This document shows, piece after piece, positions 18,811-25,141 of a stretch of 64,000 bases of DNA. Numbering within the stretch: position 1 is the first letter of the stretch; each line of letters begins with the position of its first letter. The position numbers were made by a program, and so were the translations under genes. Source of the DNA: an uncultured Gammaproteobacteria bacterium (lineage in GTDB: Bacteria; Pseudomonadota; Gammaproteobacteria; UBA9214); assembly GCA_963701505.1 (NCBI GenBank), contig CAVOZZ010000009.1:65770-129769 (forward strand), in the 5' to 3' direction. The notes beneath the pieces are model-generated. The model did no database searches. It saw only the letters and a list, made by a program, of their open reading frames with translations, and had not been told where the DNA came from.

Positions 18811-19809
18811 GTATTGCGCCTTGTAGTTTTCCAGGATCTTGATGTAGTTGGCGCGCTCGAAGGCGCCGGGATTGAGGCAGTTGACCTGGCTCATGGAGCC
18901 TCTTCAGCTGGGCCACGGAATCGTACTGCCTTGCCTCCATCCAGTCCTGCAGGCCTGTCCACCAGGGTGCGTGAGAAAGCCGATGCCGTTGCGCAGCATG
19001 CCGGAGGTGGTCATGACGGCATCCGCGCCGGCCAGCAGGTACTTGATGAGTTCCAGCGGGCTGTGCACGCCGGTGGTGGCGGCGAGCGAGGCGTTGATGC
19101 GGCCGTGCAGCACGCCGATCCACAGCAGCGGCAGGCGGATCTCGGCGGGCGTGCTGAGTTTCAGGTCGGTGATGACCTCCATTTCGTCCAGGTCCAGGTC
19201 CGGCTGGTAGAAGCGGTTGAACAGCACCAGCGCGTCGGCGCCGGCCTCGTCGAATTGCCGCGCCATGTTGCCGGTGGCGCTGAAGAAGGGGCTGAGTTTC
19301 ATGGCCACCGGGATGGAGACCGCCGCCTTCACCGCCTTGAGCACATCCAGGTAGCGCTGCTCGACCTCGCGCCCGTCCATGTAGAGGTTGGCGGGGATGT
19401 AGTAGGCGTTCAGTTCGATGCCGCTGGCGCCGGCATCCTGCATCAGGCGGGCGGTGTCCACCCAGCCCTCGTTGGTGATGCCGTTGAGGCTGCCGATGAC
19501 CGGGATGTCCACCGCCTCGGTGGCACGCCGCAGCAGGTTCAGGTATTCGTCCGGCCCGGTCTCGTAGTCCTCGAACTCCGGAAAGTAACTCAGCGACTCG
19601 GCATAGCTCTCGCTGCCCGAGGTGATCAGGTGCTCGATGGCCGCATTCTCGTGCTTGATCTGTTCCTCGAACAGCGAAAACATGACCACCGCCGCGGCGC
19701 CGGCATCCTCCATGCGCCTGAAGTTGTCGAGCTTCTCCGACAGGGGCGAGGCGGAGGCGACGACCGGGTTCTTCAGTTCCAGCCCCATGTAGGTGGTGCG
19801 CAGGTCCAT
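18811..19809 (-). pseudogene. dihydroorotate dehydrogenase-like (class 1 DHOD/DPD FMN-domain-like) protein, C-terminus disrupted by two frame changes
   Basis: ORF 18904..19809 is a TIM-barrel DHOD-like sequence (MGLELKNPVVASASPLS, GIELNAYYIP, VAMKLSPFF, LVLFNRFYQPDLD). The C-terminus continues in two other frames ([17 protein letters not shown], then [31 protein letters not shown]-stop at 18811-18813). Confidence 0.8.
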
Positions 19810-19837
19810 GGCGTTATCCTCTGTTATTCAGTTTCGC

Positions 19838-23444: not shown

Positions 23445-23520
23445 GCATTGCTCCAGGGTCCGGCGGTCAGGCCGGAAAAAACGATTGCGTAATTCAAGAC
23501 GGTGCATTCGCGCGCCGGCT

Positions 23521-25141
23521 TCAGGCGGGCTCGGGGATCATGTCGATGGCATGGCAGGGGCACTGCTCGAAGCAGACGCCACAACCGGTGCACTTGTCGA
23601 AATTCACCGCATAGCCCTTGCGCTTGCCGAGCTTGATGATGGCGCGTTCCGGGCAGGCCCCGAAACAGCCGTCGCATTCGAAGCAGTTGCCGCAGGACAG
23701 GCAGCGCAGTGCCTCGAACACGGCGTCGGCCTTGTTCAGGCCATGCACCACTTCCTCGAAGCCGGACTGGCGCTGCTGCAGGTCGAGATTCTCCTGCGGG
23801 CGCTGCGCGGCGTCGGTGAAATACCAGACATGCAGCTTGTCGAAACTGGCGAGCGGGTTTTTCGGCGGCGCCGTATAGACTTCGCCACGCAGCCAGGCGT
23901 CGATGTTGCGGGCCGCCTTCTTGCCGTGGCCGACGGCCACGGTGACGGTGCGTTCCGAGGGCACCATGTCGCCGCCGGCGAAGATGCCGGGATGGCCGGT
24001 CATCATGTGCTCGTCGACGATGACGGTGTCCCACTCGAATCTCGATGCCCTGGATATCCTTCAGCAGGCTGGTATCCGAATTCTGTCCCAGTGCCAGGAT
24101 CAGGGAATCGGCCTCCAGTGTTTCCAGTTTGCCGGTGCTTTGCGGGCGGCCGTCCTCGTCGACCTCCATGACCTCGACGGTGAAGGTGGTGGCGTCGATC
24201 TCCTTGATGGTGCGCAGCCAGTTGATCTTCACGCCTTCCTCGATGGCCTCGTCGGCCTCGAAGGGGTGGGCGGGCATGTGCTCGCGGTCGCGGCGATAGA
24301 TGATCAGGGCCTCATCGGCACCGAGGCGCTTGGCGACCCGGGCGGCATCCATGGCGGTGTTGCCGCCGCCGTAGATGGCGACGCGGCGGCCGAGCTGCGG
24401 CGCTTCGCCGGCCTCGACGCTGGCCAGGAAGCTCACCGCGTCCAGCATCTTGCCGGCGTCGCGCGCCGGAATGTCGATGTGCTTGCTGATATGGGCGCCG
24501 ATGGCGACGAACACGGCATCGAAATGTCCCGCGTCCCGTTCCGCCATCAGGTCCTCGACCTTGTGGTTGAGGACGATCTTGACGCCCATGTCCTCGATGC
24601 GCCTGATCTCGGCGTCCAGCACGTCCCGGGGCATGCGGTAGGCGGGGATGCCGAAGTGCATCATGCCGCCGGCCATCGGCCCGGCCTCGCGGATCTCCAC
24701 GCTGTGGCCCAGGCGCGTCAGGTGGTAGGCCGCCGACAGGCCGCTGGGACCGGCGCCGACGATCAGTACCCGCTTGCCGCTGGCCGGCGCGTCCCACTCG
24801 ACCTGCCAGCCCTTGCGGATGGCACGGTCGCCGAGGAAGCGCTCCACGGCATGGATGCTCACCGGGCTGTCGAGCTGGCTGCGGTTGCAGCCGGTTTCGC
24901 AGGGGTGGTAGCAGACCCGGCCGTGCACGGCCGGCAACGGGTTTTCCTCGATCAGCGCCTGCCAGGCCGCCTTGTAGCGTTTCTCGATCGCCAGTGCGAG
25001 CCAGGCCTGGATGTTCTCGCCGGCCGGGCAGGCAGCATTGCAGGGAGGCAGCAGCGAGACATAGTCGGGGCGCTGCACGCGCGTCGGGCCCATGTGGGTC
25101 TCGTGCAACAGGTCCGGCGGACGCGTCAGGTCGTGCTTCAT
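23521..25141 (-). pseudogene. GltD-like NAD(P)H/FAD oxidoreductase with C-terminal 2x[4Fe-4S] ferredoxin domain, one frame change near 24010-24040
   Basis: ATG at 25141 (MKHDLTRPPDL). Motifs: CNAACPAGENIQ, RVCYHPCETGC, VLIVGAGPSGLSAAYHL, VAIYGGGNTAMDAAR. It continues in ORF 23521..24006 (GIFAGGDMV; CLSCGNCFECDGCFGACP; CTGCGVCFEQCP). Confidence 0.8.

Follow-up and report, generated by a model that had tools for sequence, protein, structure and literature searches.

A conserved gene pair of nifJ-type pyruvate:ferredoxin oxidoreductase and an FMN-barrel protein, and its three-gene form as a candidate pyruvate:NADP+ oxidoreductase

Introduction

Why should a gene for pyruvate:ferredoxin oxidoreductase (PFOR) lie between two genes that recall the two halves of dihydropyrimidine dehydrogenase (DPD)? 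The question is raised by a 64,000-nucleotide stretch of DNA from an uncultured Gammaproteobacteria bacterium (assembly GCA_963701505.1, contig CAVOZZ010000009.1, positions 65,770 to 129,769), hereafter the window, whose minus strand encodes in succession a GltD-like protein, a nifJ-type PFOR and a flavin mononucleotide (FMN) barrel protein resembling dihydroorotate dehydrogenase (DHOD). An earlier note, made from the letters of the window, had seen in these genes a candidate pyruvate:NAD(P)+ oxidoreductase or NAD(P)H-driven pyruvate synthase. Here, we find that the conserved unit is the pair of PFOR and the FMN protein, and that the three-gene sandwich is one of two common forms of it.

PFOR is a central enzyme of carbon metabolism under anaerobic and micro-oxic conditions, and which redox partners it uses physiologically in aerobes, cyanobacteria and actinobacteria is poorly defined. 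Direct coupling of such enzymes to pyridine nucleotides has precedents. In the pyruvate:NADP+ oxidoreductase (PNO) of Euglena and Cryptosporidium, PFOR is fused to a flavoprotein of the cytochrome-P450-reductase type with a flavodoxin-like FMN part, FMN being followed by flavin adenine dinucleotide (FAD), and KorABC and PadEFGHI of Azoarcus/Aromatoleum are NAD(P)-linked 2-oxoacid oxidoreductases that use multi-subunit 2-oxoacid:ferredoxin oxidoreductases. The operon of the window would share with these systems a 2-oxoacid:ferredoxin oxidoreductase core joined to one or more flavoproteins that lead to a pyridine nucleotide, and the NCBIfam model for PadG appears among our family-scan matches. 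The flavoprotein of PNO, however, is unrelated to the GltD and DHOD folds.

Results

Translated from stop to stop, the minus strand shows three consecutive co-directional genes between 18.5 and 25.5 kb, each split over several frames. The first (25141 to 23521) encodes a GltD/NfnB-like protein with FAD and NAD(P)H sites that belongs to the PRK12771 family and has 539 aa once repaired. Its stop is separated by 76 bp (23520 to 23445) from the start of a nifJ-type homodimeric PFOR (23444 to 19838; TIGR02176; about 1199 aa repaired), which is followed, after 28 bp carrying an AGAGGA ribosome-binding site (19837 to 19810), by a DHOD-like FMN TIM-barrel protein of the PRK07565 family (19809 to 18805; 333 aa repaired). 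The earlier note had described the same order, strand, gaps and ribosome-binding site, and NCBIfam and Pfam scans agree with the three identities that it gave, including the ferredoxin domain of the GltD-like protein. It had also placed the start of the DHOD-like gene correctly, but not its end at 18811, since the TAG stop lies at 18807-18805, 6 nt further on. As reference we used L002, an intact orthologous region on a short-read metagenome contig with 90% nucleotide identity to the operon region. Membership in the nifJ type was judged by a full-length match to TIGR02176 together with POR_N, PFOR_II, POR, EKR, 2x[4Fe-4S] and TPP_enzyme_C, and the PFOR of L002 belongs to it, with 1743 bits on TIGR02176 for a cut-off of 911. 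The fragments in the window match positions 2-266, 402-620, 708-930 and 1001-1164 of the same model (472, 305, 249 and 212 bits), and the solved PFORs 6cin, 1b0p and 7plm align with the L002 protein from end to end.

Is this arrangement conserved? A scan of one genome per species provided 59 loci and a metagenome scan with the family profile 80 more, 139 when pooled, while five further look-ups concerned distant representatives of the DHOD-like family; loci were scored with the three L002 proteins as queries. Where the DHOD-like protein is at least 72% identical, that is, in close gammaproteobacterial relatives, PFOR lies directly upstream on the same strand in 14 of 14 assessable loci and the GltD-like gene lies upstream of PFOR in all 13 that could be assessed. 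At 44-71% identity PFOR is still directly upstream in 89 of 93 assessable loci, and the GltD-like gene is present in 16 of the 44 that could be assessed for it, so that the pooled counts at 44% or more are 103/107 and 29/57 assessable loci, respectively. Below 44% (mostly Bacteroidales) the homologues mostly stand alone, with PFOR upstream in 1 of 18 loci and on the opposite strand in one more. The adjacency of PFOR and the DHOD-like gene is far above chance, and it is tight: between the end of the aligned part of PFOR and the first base of the DHOD-like gene the median is about 62 nt. As only about every second locus has the GltD-like gene, PFOR and the DHOD-like gene form the conserved core. 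The three-gene order is kept in Gammaproteobacteria, Chitinophagales and some Actinomycetota, where the sandwich described in the earlier note holds as a conserved arrangement, although not as the core unit. Since the GltD-like gene is missing from the other half, the FMN protein must be able to work with PFOR without it.

The linkage between PFOR and the DHOD-like gene spans eight or more phyla. According to the genome records, the taxa concerned are Gammaproteobacteria, including metagenome-assembled genomes (MAGs) labelled Ectothiorhodospiraceae, Chitinophagales and other Bacteroidota, Ignavibacteria, Microcystis, Actinomycetota/Acidimicrobiia, Anaerolineae and Verrucomicrobiales. In the Microcystis loci the DHOD-like gene starts 2 nt after PFOR, and linkage is still seen at 37% DHOD-like identity, with an overlapping stop and start in L064 and divergent orientation in L066. 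Beyond the close relatives, the GltD-like gene occurs in Chitinophagales, in several metagenome contigs and in one actinomycete, whose MAG (L031) shows the same gene order, its GltD-like protein and the one in L002 being 64% identical. When all flanking open reading frames (ORFs) of about 100 loci were compared against each other, the only recurrent neighbours were phosphoenolpyruvate (PEP) synthase, malic enzyme and phosphofructokinase. The flanks yielded no further redox partner that recurs, and neither a ferredoxin nor a flavodoxin recurred as third partner in the loci that lack the GltD-like gene. In three metagenome loci (L100, L104, L147) the gap between PFOR and the DHOD-like gene is 1.4-3 kb, which recalls Synechocystis, where sll0743 lies between nifJ and sll0744.

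What kind of protein is the constant companion of PFOR? The family model NF005741 (PRK07565) gives 412 bits on the 301-aa in-frame part in the window and 469 bits on the L002 protein for a cut-off of 303, and thus places both in the PRK07565 family. The DHOD models TIGR01037 and NF005574 reach 70.7 bits against 270 and 65.9 against 269, the PreA model NF006183 reaches 46 bits against 335, and Pfam DHO_dh is borderline (27.1 vs 27). Unlike a PreA-type subunit, the 333-aa protein has no Fe-S domain. The family comprises 1,053 clusters at 50% identity (E <=1e-30). Its best 150 representatives are nearly all about 330 aa long, the others being fragments below that length and a few entries that reach about 420 aa, and no fusion to PFOR or GltD-like domains was found among these 150, drawn from 1.84 billion proteins. 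A PDB sequence search returned weak DHOD matches only (E 1e-5) and no solved structure of a family member. AlphaFold2 with an alignment of 28 sequences gave an unusable model (pLDDT, the predicted local distance difference test, of 52), but with 115 sequences a confident (beta/alpha)8 barrel (pLDDT 91.7), whose best PDB fold matches are the FMN domain of pig DPD, at the top, and class 1A DHODs, with a template modelling (TM) score of about 0.68 and 15-18% identity.

The FMN-site residues N109, N134, K171 and N198 are invariant or nearly so in the family, and K171, like E132, is present in 115 of 115 members. From what we know of the Lactococcus lactis enzyme, the HMMER alignment and the positions of the motifs, we take these four to be the equivalents of N67, N127, K164 and N193 of L. 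lactis DHODA. The loop after beta-4 that bears the catalytic Cys or Ser in DHODs is longer (ELN-AYYIPAN), is not conserved within the family and holds no conserved acid/base residue. At the position of Lys43, P, H, F, Y or R is found in 97 of the 115 members and Lys in only 5, being kept solely in the stand-alone Bacteroidales clade. Other residues are invariant and specific to the family (S45, E48, E49, W116, E150, R199, D204, W230, R318) and are expected to line the flavin face. On the basis of these motifs and of the predicted fold, the protein is almost certainly a flavoprotein. Because the models stay far below their cut-offs and because the equivalents of the catalytic Cys/Ser and of Lys43 are lost, it is almost certainly neither a dihydroorotate nor a dihydropyrimidine dehydrogenase. 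Membership among the DHODs of class 1A, 1B or 2 was rejected, the protein retaining the FMN-barrel residues but falling short of the PyrD model cut-offs and lacking the catalytic residue and Lys43.

Some distant homologues of the FMN protein have other neighbours. In L063 (80-4870) a PRK07565-family protein (40% identical) directly follows four genes of a group 3b-type [NiFe] hydrogenase, encoding a Fer4_22 subunit, a PyrK-like subunit, the small subunit and the large subunit, so that PFOR is not the only low-potential Fe-S enzyme that the FMN protein can accompany. In an Anaerolineales MAG (L049, 5038-11032) a homologue 38% identical comes after two genes of about 640 aa that, judged by their N-terminal sequence alone, resemble aldehyde:ferredoxin oxidoreductases. 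The homologues of Bacteroidales MAGs (L045-L058; 32-39% identical) stand alone, without a PFOR gene in their vicinity. They retain Lys at the Lys43 position (VVLKS), their N67 equivalent is followed by an additional Cys (SxNC), and by their sequences they may represent a functionally different subfamily.

The GltD-like partner consists of Fer4_20 and Pyr_redox_2 followed by a C-terminal 4Fe-4S dicluster domain (2x[4Fe-4S]). The window copy scores 529 bits with NF009410 (PRK12771) over its first 360 aa and 231 bits over the C-terminal 179 aa, the cut-off being 516, and the L002 protein, with 776 bits over profile positions 19-565 of 566, is a member of the family. Among 28 orthologues, 15 Cys are invariant: five N-terminal ones belonging to Fer4_20, those of an RCLSC motif and those of two CxxCxxCxxxCP motifs. 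By their number they would be enough for four [4Fe-4S] clusters, the complement of DPD. FAD and NAD(P)H Rossmann motifs are present, and YRR follows the second of them, as at the NADPH site of NfnB. Among solved structures, the nearest to it are the NfnB-like modules of 9bov, 9n5u and StnC (8oh5), with E 1e-82 to 1e-91, followed among PDB matches by NfnB of P. furiosus and T. maritima, GltD and DPD. With StnC, 9bov and 9n5u it has in common an 'RCLxCG' Fe-S motif after the flavin domain; those proteins differ in being formate-dehydrogenase-like fusions of about 960-1180 aa in HydABC-type complexes, whereas the protein here stands alone with 539 aa.

Could it be the NfnB subunit of a bifurcating NfnAB? 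Stand-alone NfnB homologues are non-bifurcating ferredoxin:NADP+ oxidoreductases (Fnor), and a true NfnB is recognized by a long N-terminus, Arg333 and an upstream nfnA (Huang et al. 2025, PMC12221290). The GltD-like protein was rejected as NfnB on all three counts. His takes the place of Arg333 in the window and in L002 (MPAHAFE), and none of the 28 orthologues has Arg there (H 19, Y 8, L 1); nfnA (PyrK-like, with [2Fe-2S] and FAD) is missing from the operon and, in L002 and L003, from the 10 kb around it, the gene upstream being the divergent glgP; and the N-terminus is 18 residues shorter than that of PfNfnI-B at the aligned position. The Fer4_20 and Pyr_redox_2 core and the YRR motif are shared both with NfnAB and with Fnor of the Cac_0764 type (PMC12221290, PMC9365771), the alignment with P. 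furiosus NfnI-B covering residues 32-418 (E 2e-67). The lack of Arg333 and of an nfnA partner is shared with the Fnor class, and by these sequence features the protein is a candidate for the Cac_0764 type, which is defined besides by demonstrated ferredoxin-dependent NADP+ reduction. What sets the protein apart from both is its separate family, PRK12771, an extra C-terminal 2x[4Fe-4S] domain that may act as its own 'ferredoxin', and the adjoining genes for PFOR and the FMN protein. By its sequence, then, the GltD-like partner looks like an Fnor bearing a ferredoxin domain more than like a bifurcating NfnB. In the Chitinophagales versions (L020-L023, L033, L059) YRR is replaced (F-P/Y-G) and the Arg333 position is Tyr, which suggests a pyridine-nucleotide preference other than that of the gammaproteobacterial proteins; from these residues, they may prefer NADH.

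Are the genes of the window alive? Compared with L002, they contain unpaired indels, mostly insertions: the GltD-like gene has about 1, PFOR about 9 and the DHOD-like gene 3, each 1 nt long except for a single one of 2 nt. In the GltD-like gene, a 1-nt insertion near 24039 produces two frames. PFOR has single-base indels near 22633, 22557, 22358, 22206, 22204, 21568, 21291 and 20389 and the 2-nt insertion at 21279, in agreement with tblastn, which returned 6 high-scoring segment pairs in differing frames plus one compensated pair. In the DHOD-like gene the 1-nt insertions are near 18969, 18956 and 18900. The 7 frame breaks that the earlier note counted in PFOR are therefore borne out, while those in the two flanking genes had escaped it. 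Once freed of indels, the proteins are 93-94% identical to those of L002, with no genuine in-frame stop, nonsense substitution or larger deletion (the sole '*' in the repaired GltD-like translation is an artefact of aligning paired indels, and the native frame reads through), and codon differences are synonymous rather than nonsynonymous at about 2.8:1. Relatives with 88-93% protein identity have intact genes of 539, 1199-1201 and 333 aa.

Broken ORFs are also found outside the operon, which points to patchy single-base indel errors across the assembly. Within 25878-30350, glgP has 3 breaks (four pieces) and pyruvate kinase is split into barrel and C-terminal ORFs; further cases, at 34222-36365, 51982-55225 and 7127-9818, include a split MacB_PCD/FtsX LolC/E-like permease, a split antiporter-like subunit and ORFs that are chimeras of SLT and epimerase and of epimerase and poly(A) polymerase. 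The alternative is that the approximately 13 frameshifts exist in this organism and have left the three genes as pseudogenes. The density of indels would fit it, being higher in the operon and glgP than in the neighbouring stretch of 10.2-18.6 kb, which has no breaks, and so would the breaks in the operon of two relatives (L001, L016). The closest relatives, these two among them, are long-read MAG assemblies, however, and short-read relatives are intact; the small size of the indels, their bias towards insertion and the conserved repaired proteins likewise argue against decay. Because relatives are intact, repair leaves no stops and genes elsewhere in the window are broken too, the frameshifts are very probably assembly or consensus errors, as the earlier note had wished to see confirmed, and we give the death of the operon only a small chance, an issue independent of what the proteins do.

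Discussion

The cluster is real, conserved and centred on PFOR, and it is functionally unexplained. We tentatively propose, at a little short of an even chance, that the three proteins may make up a single redox unit with PFOR at its centre, a pyruvate:NADP+ oxidoreductase of several subunits. PFOR would convert pyruvate and CoA into acetyl-CoA and CO2, the electrons would exit through its three [4Fe-4S] clusters, and the ferredoxin domain and Fer4_20 clusters of the PRK12771 protein would pass them to FAD and on to NADP+. The net reaction would be pyruvate + CoA + NADP+ -> acetyl-CoA + CO2 + NADPH, and such a route would make the PRK12771 protein a built-in, non-bifurcating ferredoxin:NADP+ oxidoreductase. 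The FMN barrel, presumably the older and dedicated partner of PFOR, would dock on the Fe-S chain as in DPD and serve either as a converter between one- and two-electron transfer or as a second electron exit. We infer complex formation, the direction of electron flow, the specificity for NADP(H) and the role of the FMN from gene linkage and cofactor motifs.

The neighbouring genes of the window handle pyruvate, PEP and glycogen. Glycogen phosphorylase (glgP, with its 3 frameshifts) and then pyruvate kinase, in two ORFs, are divergent from the operon (25878 to 30350, plus strand), and the PEP synthase gene ppsA (16159 to 18582, plus strand) is convergent with it, a position also kept in L002, L004, L005, L006 and L017; both lie outside the proposed complex. 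Given this divergent and convergent placement, the context fits a role at the pyruvate node in the use or resynthesis of glycogen.

Several observations weigh against the proposal. Since half of the PFOR/DHOD-like pairs lack the GltD-like gene, the reduction of NADP+ cannot be the function of the core pair, and in the Chitinophagales proteins YRR is absent. The genes of the window are frame-broken as sequenced. The putative substrate pocket of the FMN protein is strongly conserved (E48, E49, E132, E150, R199, D204, W230, R318), which indicates a real ligand. The strongest objection concerns the FMN protein: it is the best-conserved partner, yet a linear path of electrons to NADP+ gives it nothing essential to do. 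The complex and its activity also rest on linkage and motifs in the sequence. The direction matters as well. The oxidative half of the earlier note's proposal remains plausible, but its other half, NAD(P)H-driven pyruvate synthesis, fares worse: from standard potentials of about -500 and -320 mV we estimate about +35 kJ/mol for it, so that electron bifurcation would be needed, and the GltD-like protein has neither Arg333 nor an nfnA partner. NADPH-driven pyruvate synthesis without energy coupling is implausible.

What else could the FMN protein do? It might, like the DPD barrel, be a terminal reductase, its FMN site reducing or oxidising a small molecule, for example a fumarate-like or other carboxylated substrate, with low-potential electrons from PFOR and with NADPH by way of the GltD-like subunit where this is present. 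Such a role would account for the two-gene form, the polar residues at the predicted FMN face are invariant throughout the family, members unlinked to PFOR included, and in both of the enzymes nearest in fold, DPD and class 1A DHOD, hydride passes from FMN to a substrate; the homologues beside the group 3b [NiFe] hydrogenase and the aldehyde:ferredoxin-oxidoreductase-like genes would fit as well. Nevertheless, the loop that bears Cys130 in DHOD and Cys671 in DPD offers no conserved acid/base residue, and the flanking genes that recur include neither transporters nor pathway genes for a candidate substrate, so that we hold this role to be unlikely, if worth keeping in view. A coincidental placing of genuine PreT and PreA of pyrimidine catabolism beside PFOR, by contrast, has next to no probability. 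The predicted cofactor set is that of DPD (pig DPD; PreT/PreA), with an FAD and NAD(P)H site, four [4Fe-4S] clusters and an FMN TIM barrel, the GltD-like part aligns with DPD (E 1e-33) and the DPD FMN domain is the top fold of the DHOD-like protein, as described. The modules are those of PreT/PreA, as the earlier note had it, but they are split differently, the ferredoxin domain being on the GltD-like chain and not on the FMN chain; the barrel, at 15-18% identity, lacks the equivalents of Cys671 and of the Lys, the PFOR gene separates the two, and the DHOD-like gene follows PFOR even where the GltD-like gene is absent. Pyrimidine catabolism was rejected on the model scores, the missing catalytic residues and the neighbourhood: neither dihydropyrimidinase nor beta-ureidopropionase, which the earlier note had named as telltale neighbours, occurs among the called genes of L001-L003 or the recurrent flanking ORFs of about 100 loci.

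In another scheme, proposed for Propionibacterium by McCubbin et al. (PMC7650540), the FAD of the GltD-like protein would be a site of confurcation, merging low-potential electrons from PFOR with high-potential electrons from the FMN side, whose donor might be a quinol, to reduce NAD(P)+; run backwards, the scheme would let NAD(P)H power the synthesis of pyruvate, with the second electron passing to a high-potential acceptor at the FMN. This has the merit of giving the FMN subunit a necessary role and of making pyruvate synthesis thermodynamically possible, which fits the adjacent ppsA, and the GltD-like protein is homologous to NfnB and has two separate Fe-S arms, Fer4_20 and the C-terminal ferredoxin domain. 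The features that mark a true NfnB (PMC12221290) are nonetheless missing, the Arg333 equivalent being never Arg, nfnA absent and the N-terminus short. The DHOD-like subunit is no homologue of NfnA or PyrK, and the GltD-like gene is missing from about half of the pairs. In StnC, the nearest solved relative, we take the NfnB-like module to be an NADPH port rather than a bifurcating site. We therefore regard confurcation as rather improbable, and equally so the wider idea that the PRK07565 FMN protein is a near-universal subunit of nifJ-type PFOR and the three-gene form a confurcating or bifurcating pyruvate:NADP+ oxidoreductase or NADPH-dependent pyruvate synthase with a second substrate at the FMN. 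Finally, the FMN protein might protect or repair oxygen-sensitive Fe-S enzymes, draining electrons to O2 or another oxidant or re-reducing damaged clusters. The pair is common in aerobes and in oxygenic phototrophs (Microcystis, Synechocystis), a homologue accompanies a hydrogenase, and a rubrerythrin gene lies nearby in the window. This rubrerythrin adjacency is, however, limited to the window and one close relative, and the tight translational coupling with PFOR suggests a stoichiometric subunit, which makes a protective role very unlikely in our view.

How far has this cluster been seen before? The earlier note knew of no characterised example, and strictly this stands, since no biochemical characterisation of a PFOR/DHOD-like cluster was found in the literature searched; the arrangement itself, however, is on record. 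In Propionibacterium, the main PFOR gene (nifJ1) has on its two sides genes called 'glutamate synthase small chain-like' and 'dihydroorotate dehydrogenase-like'. All three are transcribed together and regulated together, growth is crippled when PFOR is knocked out, and an Nfn-like, quinol-oxidising confurcating complex has been postulated and further study urged (McCubbin et al. 2020, PMC7650540). By its description, that cluster matches ours in composition, order and the extra ferredoxin-type domain of the GltD-like protein, and differs from it in its phylum and in the confurcating complex proposed there, of which no enzyme was purified. In Synechocystis sp. PCC 6803, transcription unit TU3296 comprises sll0741 (nifJ), sll0743 and sll0744 ('dihydroorotate dehydrogenase (fumarate)'), which are transiently induced on entry into micro-oxia (PMC11368403), and in Chloroflexus aurantiacus the porA gene Caur_2080 is numbered beside Caur_2081, an 'aerobic dihydroorotate oxidase' (PMC3150298). 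Both organisms thus have PFOR with a DHOD-annotated neighbour (we assign sll0744 and Caur_2081 to the family by annotation and position) and, unlike the operon here, represent the two-gene form without the GltD-like protein. Searches on sll0744 and on PFOR with DHOD-like terms gave, besides PMC7650540 and PMC11368403, incidental mentions and no functional study of sll0744. With the cluster already described, and with NCBI family models in existence for both accessory proteins, our claim to novelty is a restricted one: new here are the PFOR/DHOD-like pair as a cross-phylum unit, the FMN protein without the catalytic apparatus of DHOD, and the Fnor-like GltD partner.

The FMN protein is usually mis-annotated as dihydroorotate dehydrogenase (fumarate). 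If the proposed complex is true, pyruvate oxidation in many bacteria would bypass free ferredoxin and end directly in NADPH or in another two-electron acceptor, metabolic models of cyanobacterial fermentation, of propionibacteria and of glycogen- or polyhydroxyalkanoate-cycling Gammaproteobacteria would have to be revised, and a widespread error of annotation would be put right. Synechocystis (sll0744), Propionibacterium freudenreichii and Chloroflexus aurantiacus are tractable organisms with the genes.

Genomic surroundings of the operon

The operon and the divergent glgP share an upstream non-coding region (25142 to 25877), in which we found no FNR/CRP-type box upstream of the operon. The 76-bp spacer has no terminator-like site on the minus strand, scans for promoters and terminators stayed at background level, and an Rfam scan of the whole window matched no family, nor was a tRNA found. 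The same region contains a small ORF on the minus strand (25728-25472, approximate ends), upstream of the GltD-like gene and frame-broken in the window. Its counterpart in L002 has 83 aa and no Pfam match, and in the close relatives L002, L004 and L006 the ORF is conserved at 59-82% identity; it could be a fourth member of the operon or a leader.

On the plus strand, at 7127-15444, lies a complex-I-like gene cluster without NuoEFG, also present beside the PFOR operon in L002 and not in more distant relatives. It encodes antiporter-like subunits (7127-9818, frame-broken), NuoH-like (10283-11209), NuoB-like (11247-11879), NuoC-like (11915-12457) and NuoD-like (12454-13623) proteins, and a 602-aa fusion (13636-15444) of a NuoI-like 2x[4Fe-4S] part with a GltD-like FAD/NAD(P)H module, which scores 686 bits with PRK13984, below the cut-off of 946. 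Since the NuoD-like protein has no [NiFe] CxxC motifs, the cluster is not a hydrogenase, and it may encode an NAD(P)H-fed membrane complex of the Ehr/Mbx type. The rubrerythrin gene (15446-15892, plus strand) lies between this cluster and ppsA.

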